Notes under the pieces: generated by a model | The model's database searches: none | Told to the model about the DNA's origin: nothing | Seen by the model: only the letters and a program-made list of their open reading frames with translations | In this document: positions 1-10,018 of the stretch, in pieces | Layout: every line of letters begins with the position of its first letter | Numbering within the stretch: the first letter of the stretch is position 1 | Position numbers and translations under genes: made by a program | Virus record (IMG/VR): IMGVR_UViG_2695420596_000012 | Length of the DNA: 10,018 nt | Strand: one strand, 5' to 3' | DNA from: a virus | Taxonomy: Duplodnaviria; Heunggongvirae; Uroviricota; Caudoviricetes

Positions 1-573
1 ATGTTTTGCGAAGAAAAAGTAGCTCAAATGGCTGCATACCTACTTCTTAAGAGAGGTGGGCGCATGGCATATCTGAAATTGATGAAGCTGCTCTATCTGT
101 CTAACCGCCAGTCGATTTTGAAGCATGGCAGGATGATCGGCGAAGATAGCCTTTACTCTATGAAATTTGGACCAGTCATGTCGAATACGCTGAACTTGAT
201 TCGCGGTAAGGCTGAAGGCATTGGTGACTACTGGTACAACTTGATAGAGACGAACGGGCATAATGTATCGTTGCGTTCAGATCCGAGGGAAATGGATGCA
301 GACGAGGTCTTTGATGAATTGAGTCGTGCAGATATCCGGATTTTAGATGAAATCTATTCTCGGTATGGGCATATGAACCGATTTGATCTCGCAAATATGA
401 CGCATTTAGAAAGCGTTTGTCCAGAGTGGCACGATCCTGGCAATTCTCGTAAGCCTATAGACCTGAAAGAAATGCTGATCAGTGAGGGTAAAAGCGAGGA
501 TGAGGCTAATCGCATAATTGGCAAAATGGAAGAATCTCAGAAACTTAAGGAATTTTCTTTGCAATTATCATGA
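1..573 (+). CDS. Panacea-domain (DUF4065) protein, SocA/GepA/PanA-like putative antitoxin; 190 aa. Start coincides with window edge, so the true 5' end could lie upstream.
   Basis: Translation MFCEEKVAQMAAYLLLKRGG..YLKLMKLLYLSNRQSIL..FGPVMSNTLNLIRG matches the remembered Panacea-domain pattern (A.yfl...KL.KLlY...GPV). Stop TGA 571-573 overlaps the next ATG (ATGA), indicating translational coupling. Confidence 0.65.
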   Translation: MFCEEKVAQMAAYLLLKRGGRMAYLKLMKLLYLSNRQSILKHGRMIGEDSLYSMKFGPVMSNTLNLIRGKAEGIGDYWYNLIETNGHNVSLRSDPREMDADEVFDELSRADIRILDEIYSRYGHMNRFDLANMTHLESVCPEWHDPGNSRKPIDLKEMLISEGKSEDEANRIIGKMEESQKLKEFSLQLS

Positions 574-989
574 CGGATTATCAGCCATACAGGAAAGGAA
601 CTGTGCTTGCCCCAACTGGACCATGCAATCATCTTCATGTGATTTGTAATGATCCTGTTTATTACCCCGTTAACGATTGTTATTGTGTTTTAGTTGTTAA
701 TATTTCTAGTATCAAGGATGGTGTCCCCCACGATCCGTCTTGCGTCTTGAATTCTGGTGATCATCGCTTTATCAAGCATCCAAGTTATGTTGTTTACGCT
801 GAAGCTATAATTTGGCGAGTGGATAACATGGTTAGAAAGCAGCGATCGGGTGAGATTTCTGTTCATGATGATATGCCAGAAGCTACATTCAATAGAATTC
901 TGGACGGTTTTGATATCTCTGATGAAGTTACGCCAAAGAACCTTAAATTTAAAAATAAATATTGCGTATCATCTATTGATGATGAGTAA
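570..989 (+). CDS. Hypothetical 139-aa protein, translationally coupled to the Panacea-domain gene; candidate toxin partner of unrecognised family, Cys/His-rich N-terminal half.
   Basis: ATG at 570 overlaps upstream stop by 4 nt. No Shine-Dalgarno of its own, consistent with coupling. No TM segment and no motif I recognise; CNHLHVIC...DCYC...H..C pattern hints at metal binding. Confidence 0.5.
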   Translation: MTDYQPYRKGTVLAPTGPCNHLHVICNDPVYYPVNDCYCVLVVNISSIKDGVPHDPSCVLNSGDHRFIKHPSYVVYAEAIIWRVDNMVRKQRSGEISVHDDMPEATFNRILDGFDISDEVTPKNLKFKNKYCVSSIDDE

Positions 990-1028
990 ACAACAGGAAT
1001 TGTTTCGGTATAACTTCTGGAGTTTTCT

Positions 1029-1202
1029 ATGGAAGATCAAAAAGCAACCAAGCCACAGCTTAAGTTCGACACAATGAAAGCATTCGCAGGTATGGGGGCT
1101 GCTGTTGAAGTTCTGATGAAGGCTGCTCCTAATGCGTTCACTCACGCTACTGTCTCTGGTAAAGAGCAGCAGGGTAAGCTTCGTCGTCGCAAAGCAGCAT
1201 GA
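1029..1202 (+). CDS. Small hypothetical protein, 57 aa (MEDQKATKPQLKFDTMKAF...GKLRRRKAA), not in the supplied ORF track; last gene before the terminator.
   Basis: ATG 1029 preceded by GGAG (1019-1022) with 6-nt spacer. Open to TGA 1200-1202. Followed 20 nt later by a strong intrinsic terminator. Confidence 0.4.
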   Translation: MEDQKATKPQLKFDTMKAFAGMGAAVEVLMKAAPNAFTHATVSGKEQQGKLRRRKAA

Positions 1203-1220
1203 TCATAGCTGGTGCTTTTT

Positions 1221-1250
1221 GAAAACCCGCCTTTAGGCGGGTTTTTTCTT
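1221..1250. terminator. Rho-independent terminator between convergent operons; stronger in the + direction.
   Basis: Stem AACCCGCC (1224-1231), loop TTTA, stem GGCGGGTT (1236-1243), then T-run 1242-1247. On the minus strand the same hairpin is followed by TTTTC. Sits between the + ORF ending 1202 and the minus ORF whose stop is at 1250-1252. Confidence 0.75.
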
Positions 1251-1531
1251 TAGTGATGTTCTTTGCCCTTCTGTTTGCCTGTTCTGACCTGTTCCCACTC
1301 GATACGTCCTTCTTCTCGTCTTTTGTCTATGTATTCCGCAAGATCCTGAATATTGATGCAACGTTTTGCTTTTTGTGATGTGCCGATGCGATATGTTGGA
1401 ACGGGCAACTTACAAGCGTTTGCTTTTGCTTCTGCTGTGGCTGGACTCATACCAAAGTACTTTTGGCTAACTGCTGAGAGTTCAATGTTTGAGGTATTGA
1501 ATTCAGCCATCAGTAAAAACAAGGTGTTCAT
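1250..1531 (-). CDS. Small DNA-binding protein resembling the pyocin-activator PrtN / excisionase-like family; 93 aa from the ATG at 1529-1531.
   Basis: Minus-strand ORF. ATG (MNTLFLLMAEF...) preceded by GGAG with 6-nt spacer; upstream in-frame codons lack a comparable RBS. Segment KLPVPTYRIGTSQKAKRCINIQDLAEYIDKRREE resembles the PrtN-family signature from memory. Confidence 0.5.
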   Translation of the reverse strand: MNTLFLLMAEFNTSNIELSAVSQKYFGMSPATAEAKANACKLPVPTYRIGTSQKAKRCINIQDLAEYIDKRREEGRIEWEQVRTGKQKGKEHH

Positions 1532-1571
1532 AAATTTCTCCATTATCCCGGCTGCACCCGAGGGTAATATA

Positions 1572-2438
1572 TTAATTAATAGCATCTTTGCTCTGAAGTA
1601 CAGCAAATGCCATTAATACCTCTAAAGTATATCGTCTATAAAACTTAACGAATCCAACATAAAAAACATAGACGAAGAAAAAGCTAAGTAGCGTCGAAAT
1701 AGAAATATAAGACACCGCCCCACCTTCTATAGCACGATAAATTAATGTTAGAAATGATATCCAAAATGTAATTACAAATACTAAACAAATATTTCTGCAA
1801 AAACCATATAATGCAACATAGTTTTGAATTTTTGTTTGATGTTGATTAGAAAATTCATAGACGTAATGATAAGCCAATCTGAAAAGATCATCATGAAGAC
1901 CTGTCCTGATGTTTAATAATTTATCGTCTATTCTGAATTTTTTTTCATAACCTTCTTTGATCATTAGCCATGTGGTATTAGCTAATTGAAATGGCAATGA
2001 TTGTGAATAACATAGTTTTTGAGTGGCGTAATCCCATGGTATTATCGGGAATAACATTACTTTGATTATGCAGTATTTTATTTTTCTCTTTGTGTCTTCG
2101 TTCTGTTTGTCACTTGATGGTGTTAAGACGTTTTTTTTGTCATCTGATAACTTATTAAATAGATATTCTGACGGATATTGCAATTCTTCGTTCATATATT
2201 TTTCAATAAAAAATGCGGATGTGATAGATATAAAGTGTCCAGCTATGTAAGATATGATTACTATTGAACCATAGTTCAAAATGCCAAAGATTTGACTTTG
2301 ACCTCTGAGCAATTCAGTTAAGTCAATAACAATATCTAGATCGAATGTCAAACCACAGAAATACATTAATAGGATAAAAAAACCACCTGGTATTAAATAT
2401 CCAAGAAAGTCATAGAATGAGAATGGATTTTGATTCAT
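1572..2438 (-). CDS. AT-rich integral membrane protein of unknown function: two N-terminal and two C-terminal predicted TM helices around a ~130-aa soluble core; 288 aa from ATG.
   Basis: Minus-strand ORF. The track's first codon is TTG; the in-frame ATG at 2436-2438 has GGAG with ~7-nt spacer. Hydrophobic stretches FLGYLIPGGFFILLMYFCGL, IFGILNYGSIVIISYIAGHFISITSAFF, ALYGFCRNICLVFVITFWISFLTLIY, YISISTLLSFFFVYVFYVGFV. Region is visibly far more AT-rich than its flanks. Confidence 0.6.
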   Translation of the reverse strand: MNQNPFSFYDFLGYLIPGGFFILLMYFCGLTFDLDIVIDLTELLRGQSQIFGILNYGSIVIISYIAGHFISITSAFFIEKYMNEELQYPSEYLFNKLSDDKKNVLTPSSDKQNEDTKRKIKYCIIKVMLFPIIPWDYATQKLCYSQSLPFQLANTTWLMIKEGYEKKFRIDDKLLNIRTGLHDDLFRLAYHYVYEFSNQHQTKIQNYVALYGFCRNICLVFVITFWISFLTLIYRAIEGGAVSYISISTLLSFFFVYVFYVGFVKFYRRYTLEVLMAFAVLQSKDAIN

Positions 2439-2546
2439 TGTTGCTCTCCAATAATTTTTCAATTTGTAATATAACCTATATCTATATGTTAATAAATTAC
2501 TTATATGTTCTTTTATGGCAGAGTTTGAATTCGTACGTGCTGATTT

Positions 2547-3071
2547 TTACGACTCAGTTAACTCTTTAAAGCGTTCCATAAACATCCCATAGGCATGGCC
2601 TGGCGACAGTGGAATAACTTTGAACATCTCTGTTGCCGGGATACCTTCCAGTACAGGCCAGAAAGAGCCATCATCAAGCCCGAGATCGCGGCGTTCGGTT
2701 GCCAGCATGATGAGATCGGCATATTTCACAGGCGTGCTCATAACCGTGGGTAACCCGTATTTCTCACGGATTACGGCGTCTATTTTTTCTTCCATCCGTT
2801 TATAGTCAGGAAGAAGACGTTTCAGCGGCGTGGGGATGTCCTGGCAATACGCTTCTGTTGCATCATGCATTAACGCTTCAAAAGCAAATTCCTGCGGCAC
2901 CAGCTGGCTGCAAAGCACCGCATGTTGGGCGACACTGTAGAAGTGTGAAAGATGACCGGCAAAGCGACAGATATTTGAAAGGGAAACCGCGATATCGTTA
3001 ATCACGATGTCGTCTTTATTTATCCTGTCATAATAAAAATGCTTCCCGGAAAAAGTTTTAATAAATGACAT
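2547..3071 (-). CDS. yfdR: HD-domain phosphohydrolase of the YfbR/YfdR 5'-deoxynucleotidase-like family; 174 aa from ATG.
   Basis: Minus-strand ORF. ATG at 3069-3071 preceded by GGAG with 6-nt spacer; the track's longer version starts at GTG. Motifs SVAQHAV and LMHDATEAYCQDIPTPLK resemble the YfbR H...HD...D signature (HDASEV..DLPTPVK). Symbol assigned from length and gene order matching my recollection of K-12 CPS-53 yfdP-yfdQ-yfdR, not from a search. Confidence 0.7.
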   Translation of the reverse strand: MSFIKTFSGKHFYYDRINKDDIVINDIAVSLSNICRFAGHLSHFYSVAQHAVLCSQLVPQEFAFEALMHDATEAYCQDIPTPLKRLLPDYKRMEEKIDAVIREKYGLPTVMSTPVKYADLIMLATERRDLGLDDGSFWPVLEGIPATEMFKVIPLSPGHAYGMFMERFKELTES

Positions 3072-3164
3072 TTTGTTCTCCGCGTATATGTGCTGCACCA
3101 CGCTGAATTCTGGTAAAAGGAAGCCCTCACCATCCGGCGATTATTGAGTCAATTACGTTTCCAT

Positions 3165-3186
3165 AAATGCCCCCGCAGGGGCATTT
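3165..3186. other. Perfect 9-bp-stem hairpin between the YfdQ-like and YfdR-like genes; possible weak terminator, attenuator or RNA-stability element.
   Basis: AAATGCCCC (3165-3173), loop CGCA, GGGGCATTT (3178-3186). Only short A/T flanks, no long U-tract. Confidence 0.4.
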
Positions 3187-3198
3187 GCAGTAATGAAA

Positions 3199-4023
3199 TC
3201 AGGCGGTGAAAGTACCAATAAAGGTTTCTACTTTGCTGTCTTTGAATTTCTCAACAAGCAGATCACGAAATTCGTTAGCCATTTCTTCCTGCACCGCCTC
3301 CAGCTGAATAATGCGCAGAACCAGTACAGGACGATCGCCAGTGATAATGCTGAGGCGTAATTTAAATGGACGTTCTTTCAGACCTTCAAACGGAACGCAT
3401 TTAAATTCAAATGCCACTGGCATAATATCTTTGGTTTTCGCTTCGACAGACTCCATCAGGGAGCGTTTGCCGCTGAAGTCATTATCTTCAAAATCAGCGG
3501 TCTGGTTTGCTTCAATCGTGATTTTACGGACAGCCGCAGCCGCTTTTGTTGCCTGAATAGCGTCACCATTAGCATCAAAGCCCACAAGGTAGTCGGCCCA
3601 GTCTTCAATCCATTCTGCCAGTGACTTCTGGGAATGACGCTCGCCATTAACAGACAACAGAGCAGAGAACGGTGCTGTCTTTTTCAGTTTGAGAGTGGCA
3701 GTGTTATCTGCGTGACCTGGCTCATCAATAGTACCCAGGTTAAGCACACTGACGGCACGCATATTATCGGCATCGATAAAGCAGCGGGTGCCTTCATCTG
3801 CAAGATCTTTAGAATAACGAGTAAAGTCATCGATGCTGGCAGTGGAAAGCGCACCACGGAAACGGAAACGATTTAAATTAAATTTTTCCAGATCATGAAT
3901 GCGGAAATTCTCAGGCAATGCCACAGCATCGGCACCAATCTTACTGATAATTTCATTAACACCCTGAGCAGAAATAAGGGCATGGATTTGATTAATTGCG
4001 GTTGCGTCTAAGTTCTGAGACAT
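3199..4023 (-). CDS. yfdQ: YfdQ-like (DUF2303-type) prophage protein, 274 aa.
   Basis: Minus-strand ORF with ATG at 4021-4023 preceded by GAGGA with 6-nt spacer. Length and position between a 120-aa upstream gene and an HD-domain downstream gene match my recollection of K-12 YfdQ. Family assignment is from memory. Confidence 0.65.
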
Positions 4024-4088
4024 AATAAGTCCTCACTATATAAAAATATTCAGTGATGAGAGAAATAATCAGTTTATTAAAAACGATA

Positions 4089-4451
4089 TTAATGACCTGC
4101 TGCGCGGAGTTTTCCGTCAGGTTCACCGGCAAGAGTCAGTAATTGTCCCTGGTCTTCCTGCAGAATAGTCAGGCGACCACCGCGATTGACATACATCGGC
4201 GTTTCGGTGGTGTCTTCTTCGGAAATTTTCCCGCGGTTAGTCGGGCGAACATATGAGAGTTTGTGTTTGATTTTCACACGGTTCTCATCAAATGGTTCGA
4301 TTTCCAGGTTGAGCGAGACCTTACCTTTGGTTTTCGTATTCATCACACCGGAAGCGACTTCACTGAGAACAGCGCCGATTTTGGTTTCAAATACGCCGCC
4401 GTCCAGCTCCCCGATAAATGCCTGCACATCAGTACTGCGTTCGCTAGCCAT
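4089..4451 (-). CDS. yfdP: YfdP-like prophage protein, 120 aa, starting MASERSTDVQ; first gene of the leftward operon.
   Basis: The track ORF 4089..4637 carries a 62-codon N-terminal extension I consider non-coding. ATG at 4449-4451 has GAGGAG with ~7-nt spacer. Symbol by length and synteny only. Confidence 0.55.
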   Translation of the reverse strand: MASERSTDVQAFIGELDGGVFETKIGAVLSEVASGVMNTKTKGKVSLNLEIEPFDENRVKIKHKLSYVRPTNRGKISEEDTTETPMYVNRGGRLTILQEDQGQLLTLAGEPDGKLRAAGH

Positions 4452-4499
4452 TTTGCTGCTCCTCATCATATCGACCCTGCAAGGTCGGTTGGTTTCTCC

Positions 4500-4598
4500 A
4501 CAAAACAGAGAAGAACACCTGCGGTGGCAGCCGCCCGGATGGATTGGGTTATGAGCCCGTCGGCCGGTGATGCTCTTCTCTGTTTTGTAAAAAGAGCG
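4500..4598 (-). promoter_or_regulatory. Candidate nut/put-like leader element: boxA-like motif followed by a long stem-loop in the 5' leader of the leftward operon.
   Basis: Minus-strand CGCTCTTTTTA (complement of 4588-4598) directly abuts a 15-bp perfect inverted repeat, ACAAAACAGAGAAGA (4500-4514) and TCTTCTCTGTTTTGT (4574-4588), separated by 59 nt. Lies ~50-150 nt upstream of the YfdP-like start. Confidence 0.3.
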
Positions 4599-5079
4599 GT
4601 ACCAGCCGGAAGCAAGTGTACAAACTGGTACCGCCAAAGCAGTGGCTGTTGTGGTGACCGGTGCTGATCTCCGGCTTGCGGTTATTTCAGACTCTCACGG
4701 GCGTTTAATTGCCCCGCCGAACAGCTCTTTTCCGCAATAGCTGCAATGTCTTTCGCGCATCAGCCTGCGCATTCACCACAACGCTGAGAGCACTTAGCCA
4801 GTTACGGCACCACACTTTGTCGCGGTTCCATAAATGCCCTCATCGTTGCACCCTGGTCTCTTCCCAGGTGTCAAACCGAACCGCCACGCTGGTTAGGCGT
4901 CTTATCAGCATCATCATTGACTTGCACATTCCGGCTACCTGGTTTGTTTGCTCGAGCAAGGAGTGGATTGTCCCCTTTAACGTCCCCAGACCGCTAACGA
5001 CGCATGTGCCATACGCCGTGTTACAACCAAATTTTGTTAGTACCTTGTTTGTTTGTCTGGAAAGAAAGATAAAATGAAG

Positions 5080-5118
5080 TTGCGCATTATGCAAGTGTTT
5101 TTATTGCGAGATATGCAA
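5080..5118. promoter_or_regulatory. Two operator-like palindromes (putative OL) and probable leftward early promoter region.
   Basis: TTGCGCATTATGCAA (5080-5094) and TTGCGAGATATGCAA (5104-5118), both TTGC-N7-GCAA, centres 24 bp apart. A third copy of the same motif lies in the cI-cro intergenic region. Confidence 0.45.
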
Positions 5119-5130
5119 TTTAAAGGGTAA

Positions 5131-5152
5131 TGAAAAGCCACCTTTGGGTGGC
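5131..5152 (-). terminator. Intrinsic terminator just downstream of the repressor gene (minus strand).
   Basis: On the minus strand: stem GCCACC, loop CAAA, stem GGTGGC, then TTTTC (complement of 5133-5152). Begins ~20 nt after the cI stop at 5174. Confidence 0.55.
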
Positions 5153-5173
5153 TAATTGATGAGGAGGTAAGGG

Positions 5174-5866
5174 TTAATTGTGTCGCTTAAGGGTTTGTGA
5201 CTGGCTGATTAAGACCTTTCCAAAGACCATAAACCGGTGTTCATTTTCGCTGGTAATTCCCCATTCACGGTAAATCTGGTTATCAGAAATCACCAGTAGT
5301 TTGTCAGGTATCATTTGCAGTCGTTTGACATAAATTTTATCATCAAAACCAAATACATAGATACCATCTCCATCAAACTGATTGATACTGACATCAACGA
5401 AGATGAGATCTCCTGGCTCAATGGTTGGACACATACTGTCCCCACGAACGTTGATAACTTTAATGTGATTGGCTGGCCGTCCGCCAAACATCGATACAGC
5501 ATTATCAGTTCTGTATTCAATGGCATGAATCACATCAATGACATCACCGCCCTGGATAAGGCCATTTCCCGCACTGGCACTGACATCCAGCATTTCAATA
5601 CGGAATACATCCTTCACCTGCGCAACATCCTCACTAATACTGTTTTTACATACAGTATTACTTTTGACGTCTGAGGTAAAGAGATCAGCAATATCAACAC
5701 CTAAGCTCCTGGCAATATTACTCAGGGCTTGTTCAGTGAATTGTTTCTGCTTACCTGTTTCCAGGCGTGAGATATTCGCCGCATCCACTCCTATTGCTTC
5801 AGCGAGATCGGCGATTTTCATGTTCTTCGCCTGGCGAAGTTGTCTGACTCGGTTTCCTATGTTCAT
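5174..5866 (-). CDS. cI: CI-type prophage repressor: N-terminal HTH (XRE type) plus C-terminal LexA-like S24 autopeptidase; 230 aa.
   Basis: HTH segment MKIADLAEAIGVDAANISRLETGKQ. Ala-Gly cleavage site in SASAGNG. Catalytic-Ser motif VRGDSMCPTIEPGD and Lys in YVKRL. Divergent from the Cro-like gene. ATG at 5864-5866 has almost no SD. Confidence 0.9.
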   Translation of the reverse strand: MNIGNRVRQLRQAKNMKIADLAEAIGVDAANISRLETGKQKQFTEQALSNIARSLGVDIADLFTSDVKSNTVCKNSISEDVAQVKDVFRIEMLDVSASAGNGLIQGGDVIDVIHAIEYRTDNAVSMFGGRPANHIKVINVRGDSMCPTIEPGDLIFVDVSINQFDGDGIYVFGFDDKIYVKRLQMIPDKLLVISDNQIYREWGITSENEHRFMVFGKVLISQSQTLKRHN

Positions 5867-5963
5867 GCGTTTATTACATTTCTTTATTGCGCGTTAAGCA
5901 AATCAACTTGCGCAAAATATTTGCGTGAAATAATATGCTCATCACGCAATATGTGGAGGTCAT
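5867..5963. promoter_or_regulatory. Divergent immunity promoter/operator region (OR with PR- and PRM-like promoters).
   Basis: 97-bp cI-cro spacer containing TTGCGCGTTAAGCAA (5887-5901, TTGC-N7-GCAA) and further TTGCG half-sites at 5908 and 5921. Candidate rightward -35 TTGCGC (5908-5913) and -10 TAATAT (5931-5936) with 17-bp spacer. GGAGG at 5955-5959 before the cro ATG. Confidence 0.5.
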
Positions 5964-6224
5964 ATGCAATCACCATTACGGAATGTGCGTAAGGCGCACG
6001 GATTTACTTTGCAGCATGTTGCTGCTGGCGTTCAGGTCAATCCAGCGACGCTGAGTCGTATTGAAAGACTGGAACAAATTCCATCTATCGATCTTGCAGA
6101 ACGTCTGGCCAATTTTTTTAAGGGTGAAATCAGCGAAATGCAGATTCTTTATCCGGCACGTTTTCAATCTAGCCAAAACCAGAATGGGTTTAAACCACAG
6201 GAACAGGAGGTAAGCCGTGGGTAA
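5964..6224 (+). CDS. cro: Cro-like small HTH regulator, 86 aa.
   Basis: HTH segment FTLQHVAAGVQVNPATLSRIERLE. Divergent from cI across the operator region. GGAGG with 4-nt spacer before ATG. Confidence 0.8.
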   Translation: MQSPLRNVRKAHGFTLQHVAAGVQVNPATLSRIERLEQIPSIDLAERLANFFKGEISEMQILYPARFQSSQNQNGFKPQEQEVSRG

Positions 6225-6774
6225 TCATCACTGGAAAGTGGAAAAACAGCCTGAGTGGTACGTGAAAGCTGTCAGAAAAACTATCGCGGCGTTGCCGGAG
6301 GGTTACGCTGAAGCTGCTGAGTGGCTGGATGTAACAGAGAACGCATTATTTAACCGCCTTCGTGCCGATGGCGATCAGATTTTCCCGCTGGGATGGGCAA
6401 TGATTTTACAACGTGCTGGTGGCACTCACTTCATTGCTGACGCTGTGGCGCAGTCTGCAAATGGCGTCTTTGTGTCTCTTCCTGACGTCGAGGATGTGGA
6501 CAATGCCGATATTAACCAGCGTTTACTGGAAGTCATTGAACAGATCGGCAGTTATTCAAAACAGATTCGTTCAGCAATCGAAGACGGTGTAGTGGAACCG
6601 CATGAGAAGACAGCAATTAACGACGAACTGTATCTTTCAATTTCGAAGCTCCAGGAGCATGCAGCACTGGTCTACAAAATCTTCTGCGCTCCAGAAAATA
6701 GTAACGCCCGCGAGTGTGCAGCTCCGGGCGTCGTGGCGTCGATTGCTTCTGGTTGTGGAGAAACTAACGCATGA
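6217..6774 (+). CDS. CII-position early regulatory protein (YdaT/CII-like by position), 185 aa, GTG start; function not established from sequence.
   Basis: GTG 6217 preceded by GGAGG (6206-6210) with 6-nt spacer. Overlaps the cro 3' end by 8 nt. Stop overlaps the next ATG (ATGA at 6771-6774). Confidence 0.6.
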   Translation: MGNHHWKVEKQPEWYVKAVRKTIAALPEGYAEAAEWLDVTENALFNRLRADGDQIFPLGWAMILQRAGGTHFIADAVAQSANGVFVSLPDVEDVDNADINQRLLEVIEQIGSYSKQIRSAIEDGVVEPHEKTAINDELYLSISKLQEHAALVYKIFCAPENSNARECAAPGVVASIASGCGETNA

Positions 6775-7099
6775 ATAGTTTAACGGCAAATAACCGTTTG
6801 TCGCAACAGCTGGTGGTCAGCGTCGCTGAACACCTGTTGTTACGGCATGAATGCAGATTACCAAATCACCTGGCTGTAAGTAACCACAGAGAACTTTACC
6901 TGACTGTGGGGGGCGAGTTGTGCAGGAACTTAACCGCTGGTTTCGTGACGGAAGAGGGCTTTATGTCCATGTTATTCGTTGGGAGCCAGAAACACAGCGC
7001 GTTATCTATCTTCGCAAAGACTACCCGCATGAGTGCTTTAGTCCTTTGTGGAAATTCAGGCGTGATTTTGTTGAGTGTGAAGGACCACCAGCATATTGA
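6771..7099 (+). other. Alternative model: ~109-aa product made from frame 0 (6771-6913) joined to the -1 frame (6914-7099) at a G6 tract; frameshifted gene, programmed -1 slip, or homopolymer sequencing error.
   Basis: Heptamer G GGG GGC (6908-6914) is in X XXY YYZ register for frame 0. The -1 frame opens at 6884 and translates to a protein-like sequence (RVVQELNRWFRDGRGLYVHVIRWEPETQRVIYLRKDYPHECFSPLWKFRRDFVECEGPPAY) ending TGA 7097-7099. Confidence 0.3.
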
Positions 7100-7931
7100 T
7101 TCTGCAATTCCGGGACGTTACACTGCTCAGGCACCTTATAAAGCGGGTGCCGGGATTGGCGTCCTGAAATTGTCAACGGCGATGTATGACGCGCCAGCGT
7201 CTTTTTTATCGTCCGCATTTGCTCACATCCAGATTATGGTGGGCTGGGCGGGGGCACCGAAAGGTGCGCCGGTCTCCGTTGACGCCGGTTACGCCAACCC
7301 CGTCCAGTTCACCACCAGTGAAATTGGCGTTTCCGGTGGTGGAAGTTTTTCACTGTCAACGGAGGCTGCCATCATGGCTACGATCCCAGCCCTCACCCAA
7401 CCTGAAATCACCATTGACAACGGCCAGGCCGTTACCACTTCTTTGGCTGTTGCCAACTTCTTCTCCAAGCGTCACGACGATGTGCTGAAAAAGATCCGCA
7501 CTCTGGATTGTTCCCCAGAGTTTTGTGCCCGCAATTTTGCGGAGACATCGATTTCGGTAAATCAACCGAACGGTGGTACACGCAAGCTCCCTTGCTATCA
7601 AATCACACGAGACGGTTTTGCGTTTCTTGCTATGGGTTTCACGGGTAAACGTGCTGCCCGGTTCAAAGAGGCATACATAAATGCCTTTAACCAGATGGAG
7701 AAACAGCTTTCAAAGCCCGCTGTACCGAGCGACGTTGCACATAACGCCAGCGTTCTCTGTTCCTACATTTCATCAATTCATCAGGTCTGGCTGCAGCAGC
7801 TTTATCCTATGTTGGCAAAAGCCGAATCTCCGCTGGCTGTTAGCTTATATGACTATATTAATGATGCTTCGGCGCTGGCCAGTCTCATAAATTTGTCGCT
7901 GAACCCTTCAGAGGTAAGGGGGCGCAAATGA
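6771..7931 (+). CDS. Long ORF (386 aa) whose C-terminal half is a Rha-family phage regulatory (antirepressor-like) domain; N-terminal ~200 codons are of doubtful structure, and the Rha core probably starts at ATG 7374.
   Basis: Residues from AVTTSLAVANFFSKRHDDVLKKIR to YQITRDGFAFLAMGFTGKRAARFKEAYINAFNQME match the Rha-domain signature from memory. Internal ATG 7374 is preceded by GGAGG (7361-7365). ATG 6771 is coupled to the upstream stop. Frame 0 has no stop between 6771 and 7931. Confidence 0.45.
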   Translation: MNSLTANNRLSQQLVVSVAEHLLLRHECRLPNHLAVSNHRELYLTVGGELCRNLTAGFVTEEGFMSMLFVGSQKHSALSIFAKTTRMSALVLCGNSGVILLSVKDHQHIDSAIPGRYTAQAPYKAGAGIGVLKLSTAMYDAPASFLSSAFAHIQIMVGWAGAPKGAPVSVDAGYANPVQFTTSEIGVSGGGSFSLSTEAAIMATIPALTQPEITIDNGQAVTTSLAVANFFSKRHDDVLKKIRTLDCSPEFCARNFAETSISVNQPNGGTRKLPCYQITRDGFAFLAMGFTGKRAARFKEAYINAFNQMEKQLSKPAVPSDVAHNASVLCSYISSIHQVWLQQLYPMLAKAESPLAVSLYDYINDASALASLINLSLNPSEVRGRK

Positions 7932-8152
7932 TCCGGAATATTTTCAAACGGTTTACCAATCATACTTTCCGTTGTCCTCGTCCGGGTCAGTGGTACACCA
8001 CGCCTGCTGGGCATGTTCTACGTGTTAGCCTGGTTGACCGTGAATGTCAGAAGGTGGTTTGTGAACCGCTGGGCCGTAATTACCGCGTCAGTATGCCGCT
8101 TATAGCCTTTTGCTCCGGAAAAATGTTTAAGCGTCTGGGAGGTGTGGCGTGA
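7928..8152 (+). CDS. Hypothetical small protein, 74 aa, with four Cys (possible small metal-binding fold).
   Basis: ATG 7928 overlaps the upstream stop (ATGA). Cys at CPRPG, RECQKVVC and AFCSG. Confidence 0.45.
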   Translation: MIRNIFKRFTNHTFRCPRPGQWYTTPAGHVLRVSLVDRECQKVVCEPLGRNYRVSMPLIAFCSGKMFKRLGGVA

Positions 8153-8290
8153 ACTGTTTTCAGTTTGTGTGCGGATGTGCTTTCGATAACCCGATTCAGC
8201 GCCTGATTATGTTGCGTGTTTTGATGTCGGGTTCCGGACTACAGCCCACTCCATATCTGATTTAATACACTATCCCGGCCGGGAGGAATA

Positions 8291-10018
8291 ATGACATTTA
8301 AACATTATGATGTTGTCAGGGCGGCGTCGCCGTCAGACCTTGCGGAAAAGCTGACACACAAACTGAAAGAGGGCTGGCAGCCGTTTGGTAGTCCGGTGGC
8401 CATAACCCCTTATACCCTGATGCAGGCGATTACAGCAGAAGGTGATGTGGTGGTCAGTGGTGCAACTGAGCCGGATTGGTACTACGTCATCGTACTGGCC
8501 GGGCAGTCCAATGCCATGGCTTACGGTGAAGGGCTTCCGCTGCCGGATTCATACGATGCTCCGGATCCGCGCATTAAACAGCTGGCGCGCCGCAGTACAG
8601 TTACGCCGGGTGGGGCTGCATGCAGATATAACGATATTATTCCGGCCGACCACTGCCTGCATGATGTGCAGGATATGAGTACGCTGAATCATCCGAAGGC
8701 AGACCTGAGCAAAGGGCAGTACGGCTGTGTCGGCCAGGGCTTACATATTGCCAAAAAACTGCTCCCGTATATCCCGAATAACGCGGGGATCCTGCTGGTA
8801 CCATGCTGTCGTGGTGGTTCGGCATTTACCCAGGGCGCGGAGGGGACATTCAGTGCGGACACGGGGGCCAGCCAGGATTCGGCGCGCTGGGGTGTGGGTA
8901 AACCGTTATATCAGGACCTGATTGCGCGCACCAAAGCTGCATTACAGAAGAACCCGAAAAATGTGTTGCTGGCGGTGTGCTGGATGCAGGGAGAGTTTGA
9001 CATGAGCGCCGCCACCCACGCACAGCAACCTGCGCTGTTTACAGCCATGCTGACACAGTTTCGTGCTGACCTCTCCGTGTTTAACGCGCAGTGCCATGGT
9101 GGCAGTGCTGCAGATGTGCCGTGGATTTGTGGTGACACGACGTATTACTGGAAAAATACCTACGGCACCCAGTACAACACCATTTACGGGGCGTACAAAA
9201 ACAGGGAGAGTGAGGGCGTTTATTTTGTGCCCTTCATGACAGACGGTAACGGCGTCAATACCGCCACTAACGCGCCGGCAGAAGATCCGGATATTCCGGC
9301 ATCAGGATATTACGGTGCGGCATCGAGAACGAATGGAAACCAGGTATCATCAAACCGCCCGACACATTTCAGTTCATGGGCGCGCAGGAGCATTATTCCG
9401 GATCGTCTGGCAACCGCTATTCTGAACGCAGCCGGGCGCACCTCAGCCTTCATCAGTGGTAAGGCACCGGAAATCAAACCCTCGCCCGGCGGCAACACGC
9501 CATCGGGTCCGTCTGCAGATACGTCCGTTCGCACAATCTCCCTGCTGCCGGCAGCCGGAGAGGCTGCTGCGCAGGGCTGGAGCATTAAGGATGGCGGAAT
9601 TCAGTTGTCAGATGGTGTATTTAAGATCACCAAGCAGAGCAATAAAACCTGGTCCCTGACGCATCCGGTGGATGACGCAATTACCCTGCTGACACAGGGC
9701 GGCAGACTGAACTGTAAGTTCCGCCTGTCAGGCGCACTGACCAACAATCAGTTCGGGCTGGGGATTTATCTGTATACGGATGCTCCCGTTCCTGATGGTG
9801 TGGCGATGACGGGTACCGGTAATCCGTTCCTGATGTCGTACTTCACTCAGACCACTGACGGCAGAGTGAATCTGATGCATCACAGGAAAGCCGGAAACAC
9901 GAAGCTGGGGGAGTTCGGCGATTACGGTAACGACTGGCAGACGCTGGAGCTGGTGTTCACCGCCGGCAGTGCCACGGTTACTCCGAAACTGAATGGAGTG
10001 GCTGGCCCGGCATTCCAG
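8291..10018 (+). CDS. Prophage-type sialate O-acetylesterase-like protein (NanS-p-like): N-terminal DUF1737, SASA/SGNH hydrolase domain, C-terminal beta-rich probable carbohydrate-binding region; 3'-truncated by window end (576 codons visible).
   Basis: Hand translation from ATG 8291 (GGAGG at 8282-8286) is open to the last base; absent from the ORF track, presumably because no stop falls in the window. Motifs VLAGQSNAMAYGEG (SGNH block I) and WMQGEFD (SASA W-QGE-D). N-terminus MTFKHYDVV...EGWQPFG resembles DUF1737. Confidence 0.8.
   Translation, partial: MTFKHYDVVRAASPSDLAEKLTHKLKEGWQPFGSPVAITPYTLMQAITAEGDVVVSGATEPDWYYVIVLAGQSNAMAYGEGLPLPDSYDAPDPRIKQLARRSTVTPGGAACRYNDIIPADHCLHDVQDMSTLNHPKADLSKGQYGCVGQGLHIAKKLLPYIPNNAGILLVPCCRGGSAFTQGAEGTFSADTGASQDSARWGVGKPLYQDLIARTKAALQKNPKNVLLAVCWMQGEFDMSAATHAQQPALFTAMLTQFRADLSVFNAQCHGGSAADVPWICGDTTYYWKNTYGTQYNTIYGAYKNRESEGVYFVPFMTDGNGVNTATNAPAEDPDIPASGYYGAASRTNGNQVSSNRPTHFSSWARRSIIPDRLATAILNAAGRTSAFISGKAPEIKPSPGGNTPSGPSADTSVRTISLLPAAGEAAAQGWSIKDGGIQLSDGVFKITKQSNKTWSLTHPVDDAITLLTQGGRLNCKFRLSGALTNNQFGLGIYLYTDAPVPDGVAMTGTGNPFLMSYFTQTTDGRVNLMHHRKAGNTKLGEFGDYGNDWQTLELVFTAGSATVTPKLNGVAGPAFQ

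Follow-up and report, generated by a model that had tools for sequence, protein, structure and literature searches.

A prophage-borne, three-domain NanS-p-type sialate O-acetylesterase gene beside an apparent deletion junction

Results

An open frame encodes a NanS-p-type sialate O-acetylesterase

The open frame that occupies the right-hand end of the 10,018-nt stretch of viral DNA analysed here (hereafter the window) is an unexceptional gene, well known from E. coli prophages, that specifies a three-domain sialate O-acetylesterase of the NanS-p type. In our main reading, to which we give a probability of roughly 90%, the window carries a prophage-borne, three-module NanS-p-type esterase, a late gene that a deletion has joined to an early operon. 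The features of NanS-p that can be tested in a sequence, namely a DUF1737 domain, a NanS-like catalytic domain and a C-terminal lectin-like domain, are all present. Descriptions of NanS-p esterases go back to about 2014, and the gene family, the window allele and the outline of structure and function are already published; crystal structures exist for the chromosomal homologue NanS and for a NanS-p C-terminal domain. The gene and its parts are as follows.

8281..8286, + strand: Shine-Dalgarno-like GGGAGG, about 5 nt 5' of the ATG (read from the sequence)
8291..10018, + strand: nanS-p-type gene, codons 1–576 of 616, running off the window (open frame; WP_338925074.1; PHROG 143)
8297..8440, + strand: DUF1737 domain, residues 3–50 (Pfam PF08410)
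8465..9427, + strand: NanS-like SGNH/SASA catalytic domain, residues 59–379 (3PT5; PF03629)
9551..10018, + strand: C-terminal lectin-like jelly-roll domain (DUF6645), residues 421–576, lacking its last 40 residues (PF20350; 6YP6)

Re-translation of 8291–10018 on the plus strand gave 576 sense codons and no stops, in agreement with the initial annotation, which had reported at least 576 codons from the ATG at 8291. The probability of such a frame arising by chance, calculated from the base composition of the stretch, is ~6e-11, and the frame is still open at the last base of the window (10018). Because an in-frame TGA lies at 8258–8260 and no ATG, GTG or TTG occurs between this codon and 8291, the ATG at 8291 is the sole possible start, and PGAP places the same start on the gene in near-identical genomes. 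The ribosome-binding site is kept as GGGAGG in the prophage of strain E2 and in phi24B, and is found as GGAG (one G fewer) in H-19B and as GGGAG in phage 434. At the other end, the window protein is identical to residues 1–576 of the 616-aa RefSeq protein WP_338925074.1 (100% over 576 aa), which places the stop 120 nt plus a stop codon past the window; going by this record, 40 residues (VIKDSLTLGLNALTLTDVTKNAAYGVEIESLVLEINAPAA) lie beyond the window edge.

The mechanical list of open reading frames contains only ORFs of 51–91 aa within 8442–9883 and lacks the esterase frame, because the tool omits ORFs that run off the source. The remark in the initial annotation that short, out-of-frame ORFs hide the main gene was correct, and the cause is purely technical. 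Real genes are hidden wherever ORF tracks drop frames at contig edges in this way. Independently of the window, the esterase gene is also unannotated in the GenBank record of H-19B and in several records of Stx phages, and near-identical copies carry three different RefSeq names.

Domain structure and catalytic blocks

We judged Pfam domain calls against the curated gathering cut-offs, and all three domains scored above them. DUF1737, which the initial annotation had proposed for the N-terminus, scored 57.8 bits (cut-off 24), and SASA (residues 66–262) scored 48.8 bits (cut-off 24.8). The match of residues 59–379 to the crystal structure of E. coli NanS/YjhS (3PT5) at E=4e-121 further bears out the SASA-type SGNH domain that had been proposed. 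[quoted passage not shown] Since these matches are to solved structures, we regard the folds as settled. The DUF6645-type C-terminal domain of NanS-p has been described as a lectin-like jelly-roll (reviewed in PMC8065619). Along its full length the esterase also matches PHROG 143, a family that has no assigned function, and a search of NCBIfam with the protein returned zero families. As NCBIfam has no family for the protein, PGAP names it by its domains.

For 3PT5, four blocks are given in a survey of SGNH active sites: 17-GQSNA-21, 120-RGGSAF-125, 178-MQGEFD-183 and R-x-SHFS-303 (PMC10792757). The window protein contains all four, as GQSNA (71–75), RGGSAF (174–179), MQGEFD (232–237) and RPTHFS (356–361); the GQSN and W-QGE-D motifs noted in the initial annotation correspond to GQSN at residues 71–74 and WMQGEFD at 231–237. 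The positions of these blocks identify Ser73 as the nucleophile and His359 as the base. Mutagenesis of NanS confirmed the catalytic roles of the Ser and the His, and no acidic third residue was identified (PMC10017367). In the phi24B/933W type the His block reads RSSH or RASH, as against RPTH in the window allele; the RPTH spelling is a known NanS-p variant, seen in Stx2a prophage 86 (PMC10462455). The homology and the conservation of the catalytic blocks suggest that the window allele encodes an active enzyme.

Distribution and relatives of the gene

Similar DNA occurs in 2205 of the 5426 complete E. coli genomes (~40%), a single genome holding as many as 14 copies (median 2), and the genomes closest to the window are those of poultry and bovine isolates, not enterohaemorrhagic strains. 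The initial annotation had likened the gene to the NanS-p esterases of enterohaemorrhagic E. coli. The architecture and the NanS-p identity stand, but the gene is not confined to such strains.

The allele itself is that of H-19B, YYZ-2008 and dozens of Stx1a-converting phages, which share 98.7–99.2% nucleotide identity with the window gene over all 1,728 bases. CPT_434_71 of phage 434, annotated as a "SASA family carbohydrate esterase", is 95.5% identical in nucleotide sequence, and the genes of phage 434 and of the RefSeq relatives have the same annotated length of 616 aa. Some phage records call the gene "yjhS". Relatives share the order Q, tRNAs, either stx or TerB/DUF3927, esterase, holin and endolysin, and the esterase lies between Q/stx and the lysis cassette in every relative examined. 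Within the H-19B/Stx1a/434 group it follows stx1 or Q-region genes and precedes a class II holin. In the closest genomes, the TerB and DUF3927 genes adjoin the esterase and stx is absent. The window differs from all of these on the upstream side, where a deletion junction takes the place of the Q/stx-side context.

Comparison with the NanS-p proteins of phi24B and 933W

The NanS-p proteins that have been studied structurally and biochemically, vb_24B_21 (gp84) of phi24B and 933Wp42 (z1466) of 933W, have the same order of three domains and the same SGNH blocks as the window protein. The window allele belongs to the H-19B/Stx1a-phage/phage-434 type and is 56% identical overall to vb_24B_21. This identity is unevenly distributed, being highest in residues 1–34 (82%), intermediate in the catalytic domain (71%) and lowest in the C-terminal domain (37%). 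At 616 aa the window allele is shorter than vb_24B_21 (645 aa), and both of its interdomain linkers are shorter.

Residues Y510, Y515, Y540 and F611 of the phi24B protein have been proposed to bind carbohydrate (PMC10462455). The equivalent residues in the window allele are F488, Y493, F518 and L584, such that one of the four aromatics is kept (as Tyr), two are changed from Tyr to Phe and one is a Leu. Because of these changes and the 37% identity of the domain, the ligand specificity of the C-terminal domain may differ from that of phi24B. At the N-terminal end, the DUF1737 domain of the phi24B protein was seen by cryo-EM as a hexamer inserted in the hexon at the centre of each capsid face, and two SSP motifs in the same protein were proposed as self-processing sites (preprint 10.64898/2026.04.10.717836). 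In the window allele both SSP motifs are absent and the anchoring loop, which in phi24B carries the Tyr42 "tooth", is 3 residues shorter, with Tyr41 present.

Proposed function of the esterase

E. coli imports and catabolises free, de-O-acetylated Neu5Ac, but not the O-acetylated form. In the function that we propose, the SGNH/SASA module would de-O-acetylate sialic acids, Neu5,9Ac2 among them, by means of the Ser73–His359 pair and the oxyanion-hole blocks RGGSAF and MQGEFD, the C-terminal jelly-roll module is thought to bind carbohydrate, and the DUF1737 module corresponds to the part that in phi24B anchors the protein to capsid hexons. The known substrates of NanS-p are O-acetyl groups on Neu5,9Ac2 and on mono-, di- and tri-O-acetylated mucin sialoglycans, and the jelly-roll C-terminal domain has been proposed to target the enzyme to glycans (PMC8065619; PMC8319020). 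All tested nanS-p alleles of EDL933 and O104:H4 are active and support the growth of lysogens on Neu5,9Ac2 (reviewed in PMC8065619; PMC8319020).

By inspection, the N-terminus of the esterase lacks a hydrophobic signal-peptide core. Release of the protein presumably depends, for want of such a signal, on the lysis cassette located behind the esterase in relatives, and the protein would reach mucin sialoglycans once phage lysis genes open the cell, or would be carried there on virions. The esterase gene of relatives is a member of the Q-dependent late operon, placed between Q/tRNAs (or stx) and the holin. Expression of nanS-p rises by 1–2.4 logs with mitomycin C in Stx2a strains (PMC10462455).

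The protein might instead serve the phage and not the lysogen, as a part of the virion that DUF1737 fixes to capsid hexons, with the esterase and lectin modules keeping the phage in mucus or stripping O-acetyl groups as the particle approaches the host surface. We hold this possibility tentatively, as somewhat doubtful. It draws on the finding that the phi24B homologue gp84 is among the most intense bands of the virion, with the DUF1737 hexamer in the central hexons (preprint 10.64898/2026.04.10.717836), on the closeness of residues 1–34 to those of phi24B, on the constant location of the gene within the late operon of relatives and on a review in which a role in the phage cycle is posed as a question (PMC8065619). 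Nevertheless, the shortened tooth loop and the missing SSP motifs set the window protein apart from that of phi24B, and phi24B is a T=9 podovirus, whereas the relatives of the window prophage have lambda-type terminase, portal and S49 protease head genes. In addition, the window element is unlikely to produce virions with Q deleted. A role on the virion is, moreover, compatible with a metabolic role.

An apparent deletion joins the esterase to the early region

Positions 1–8234 of the window constitute the early region of a lambdoid prophage, with a Panacea-domain gene, PrtN, YfdR, YfdQ, YfdP, a cro-like HTH gene, a CII/CP76-like gene, Ash/Rha and a 74-aa gene. These 8,234 bp match 14 complete genomes at ~100%, yet in those genomes the esterase region (8229–10018) lies 7.8 kb further on. 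The features bearing on this difference are as follows.

5174..5866, − strand: S24 cI-like repressor, in the early region of the prophage
8149..8265, + strand: 38-codon fusion ORF, made of the first 28 codons of the 99-aa gene WP_000995577.1 and 10 new codons (translation)
8232..8234, no strand: deletion junction with TTC microhomology (breakpoint alignment against strain E2)
8235..8290, + strand: remnant of the native esterase leader, comprising the 3' arm (GGACTACAGCCC) of a conserved 13-bp hairpin and untranslated leader (reference sequence, fold, and leader alignment with H-19B and phi24B)

Alignment against strain E2 showed that 7,783 bp of the closest genomes are missing in the window at the junction, which falls 57 nt upstream of the esterase ATG. 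The left flank is identical to E2 up to ...GATGTCGGGTTC, the right flank resumes at TTCCGGACTACAG, and only the TTC is shared. In each of the genomes concerned, the two halves of the window align to a single prophage with 7,783 bp between them, and, the junction microhomology aside, the left part (8,234 bp) has 2 mismatches to relatives and the right part (~1,790 bp) has 1. The junction did not figure in the initial annotation.

The first part of the lost stretch holds the rest of the 99-aa gene, which in strain E2 is intact and follows the 74-aa gene, together with a 331-aa gene and the genes for a Dam methylase, RusA, a KilA-N protein and a DUF968 protein. The second part comprises the Q antiterminator, two small genes, tRNA-Ile, tRNA-Arg, tRNA-Arg, TerB and DUF3927. 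Also lost is most of the 400-bp spacer that precedes the esterase, in which two terminator-like hairpins with T-runs are followed by a perfect 13-bp hairpin. The right breakpoint lies within the loop of this 13-bp hairpin. We considered whether the hairpin cut by the deletion might be an intrinsic terminator and rejected the idea, as a T-run does not follow it. The leader with its hairpins is kept in H-19B and phi24B, though not in phage 434. The 38-codon fusion ORF created by the junction ends 25 nt 5' of the esterase ATG.

We searched for the junction in several collections. None of the 5426 complete E. coli genomes contained it at a query coverage of 80% or more, an exact 30-mer spanning it had 0 matches in each of the genome, viral and metagenome contig collections, and the junction-spanning 38-aa ORF had no record in the gene/assembly index. 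Among the 10 neighbourhoods of the 74-aa gene that were listed (24 of 3,141 index blocks covered), none had the deletion and all had intact 99-aa and ~331-aa genes. Because the junction is in no collection searched, it is either a private deletion of the source strain or an artefact of assembly. The clean 3-bp microhomology within the hairpin loop looks more like illegitimate recombination than like misassembly of short reads.

Proposed control of the esterase after the deletion

The deletion would attach the esterase, complete with its ribosome-binding site, to the tail of the early rightward operon, and the lost sequence takes in Q, the stretch that should contain the late promoter, three tRNA genes and the two terminator-like hairpins. 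If the junction is real, the normal late-gene control region has gone and Q-dependent control is lost with it; the esterase would then be transcribed only by read-through from the repressor-controlled early promoter. No terminator-like site was found within 7800–8400 of the window, and a simple scan detected no consensus sigma-70 promoter for the early operon. This rewiring of transcription is one that we infer from the arrangement of the genes.

Alternatively, the esterase may be a silent remnant, a dead passenger of a decaying prophage that a deletion or a misassembly has cut off from its promoter and from Q. We consider this unlikely, though not by a great deal. The absence of Q, of the presumed late-promoter region and of 7.8 kb of nin-type genes is what such a remnant would look like, the junction is unique to the window among the collections searched, and IS insertions at the same region in relatives of the prophage point to ongoing decay. 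Set against this, the coding sequence is undamaged and shows no difference from relatives across the 576 visible codons, the ribosome-binding site is kept, and the esterase points the same way as the early operon, from which no terminator-like site separates it, so that read-through is possible. A recent deletion would have left no time for decay, and the intact frame is thus not proof of expression in either direction.

A further possibility is that the deletion is real, that a late, Q-dependent gene has become Q-independent, and that the esterase, presumably along with the lysis cassette, is now read from the cI-repressed early operon. We regard this as improbable, and put it forward as speculation.

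The gene is not chromosomal nanS

The chromosomal homologue NanS (PDB 3PT5), the E. coli 9-O-acetyl-N-acetylneuraminate esterase, shares with the window protein a homologous catalytic domain containing all four SGNH-type blocks, among them the Ser and His validated by mutagenesis, but NanS is a single-domain protein of the nanCMS operon (PMC10017367), whereas the window protein is phage-encoded and adds a DUF1737 and a lectin-like domain. Despite a catalytic domain about two-thirds identical to NanS over ~320 residues (alignment, by eye) and the yjhS label in phage records, the notion that the gene is nanS (yjhS) of the nanCMS sialic-acid operon and not a phage gene has a negligible probability, being refuted by the domain architecture (three domains, 616 aa) and by a phage context that is seen upstream in the window and, in relatives, to either side of the gene. 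The 3PT5 construct has 337 residues and aligns with residues 59–379 only, the catalytic core in the window being extended by DUF1737 and a C-terminal domain of ~200 residues. The neighbours are all phage genes (cI-like repressor, cro-like, CII/CP76 and Rha; relatives also have holin and lysozyme genes downstream), and as many as 14 copies of the gene occur in one genome.

Discussion

As both RefSeq and the classic phages H-19B and 434 already contain the allele, the discovery of the gene as such matters little. What the window may offer lies in its control region and in its allele class. Should the esterase be read from the early operon as proposed, the element would represent a domesticated, SOS-triggered module for lysing the cell and releasing the esterase, within a prophage that has no Q-run late programme. 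The allele class to which the window gene belongs would serve as a natural test of DUF1737 capsid decoration beyond phi24B, since it combines shorter linkers, the absence of the proposed self-cleavage motifs and a divergent lectin domain, and is also carried by lambdoid phages of the siphovirus type.

A putative deletion junction upstream of the esterase gene

Relative to the closest genomes, one of which (strain E2) was used for breakpoint alignment, the region immediately 5' of the nanS-p-type sialate O-acetylesterase gene (window 8149–8290, junction at 8232–8234) lacks 7,783 bp, and the microhomology at the join is TTC only. The missing segment includes genes for Q, three tRNAs, TerB, DUF3927, RusA, Dam, KilA-N and DUF968, together with two terminator-like hairpins. 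A 13-bp hairpin is conserved 5' of the esterase gene, and the right breakpoint falls within its loop. The junction had no match in the public collections searched. The G+C content of the esterase gene (window 8291–10018) is 56%, with a GC3 of 61%, against 46% for the whole window. This contrast is consistent with separate origins for the esterase gene and the lambdoid early region.

The leader and annotation of the esterase gene in related phages

The nanS-p leader could be followed in reference loci carrying it:

L002 16378–16399, 16497–16518 and 16533–16577: leader elements, with equivalents in L003 and L004 (phage H-19B)

Within this leader a terminator-like hairpin comes first, followed by a GGGCTGTAGTCC/GGACTACAGCCC hairpin that has no T-run. 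H-19B, phi24B and a prophage that lacks stx all conserve this leader, which in phage 434 is replaced by other sequence. It may serve in processing or stability, or may instead mark a recombination boundary.

In the H-19B GenBank record (AF034975.3) the esterase gene, at 2501–4223, carries no annotation, and a 2.8-kb gap from stx1B to S is free of features. The gene is likewise unannotated in many Stx-phage records, several of them from the LC series. Near-identical copies appear under the names "DUF6645 domain-containing protein", "SASA family carbohydrate esterase", "DUF1737 domain-containing protein" and "yjhS".

Gene pair, intergenic interval and RNA matches in the early region

The following features were found in the early region:

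1–573, plus strand: SocA/Panacea antitoxin-domain protein gene (70.9 bits)
603–989, plus strand: next gene, encoding a 128-aa protein
5153–5136, minus strand: terminator-like hairpin directly 3' of the cI-like repressor gene
6771–7931: annotated "Rha family" CDS, 386 aa
7131–7207, plus strand: isrK Hfq-binding RNA (Rfam, gathering-level, 62.2 bits)
7232–7319, plus strand: C4 antisense RNA (Rfam, gathering-level, 81.4 bits)

The first base of the window is the A of the Panacea gene's ATG. In strain E2 this gene and its neighbor are flanked, at the edge of the prophage, by a tRNA-dihydrouridine synthase gene in truncated form. The 128-aa protein, for which a Pfam search returned no match, could be the toxin partner of the antitoxin-domain protein. 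Further downstream, approximately 720 bp (4452–5173) separate yfdP from the cI-like repressor gene, an interval in which relatives annotate no gene.

Both RNA matches fall within the "Rha family" CDS and overlap the Pfam Phage_ASH match of the same ORF (residues 117–212), an arrangement reminiscent of a P1 immI- or Gifsy-1 isrK-type antirepressor switch. The 386-aa CDS may in part represent translated RNA genes, as perhaps may the Ash protein family itself.
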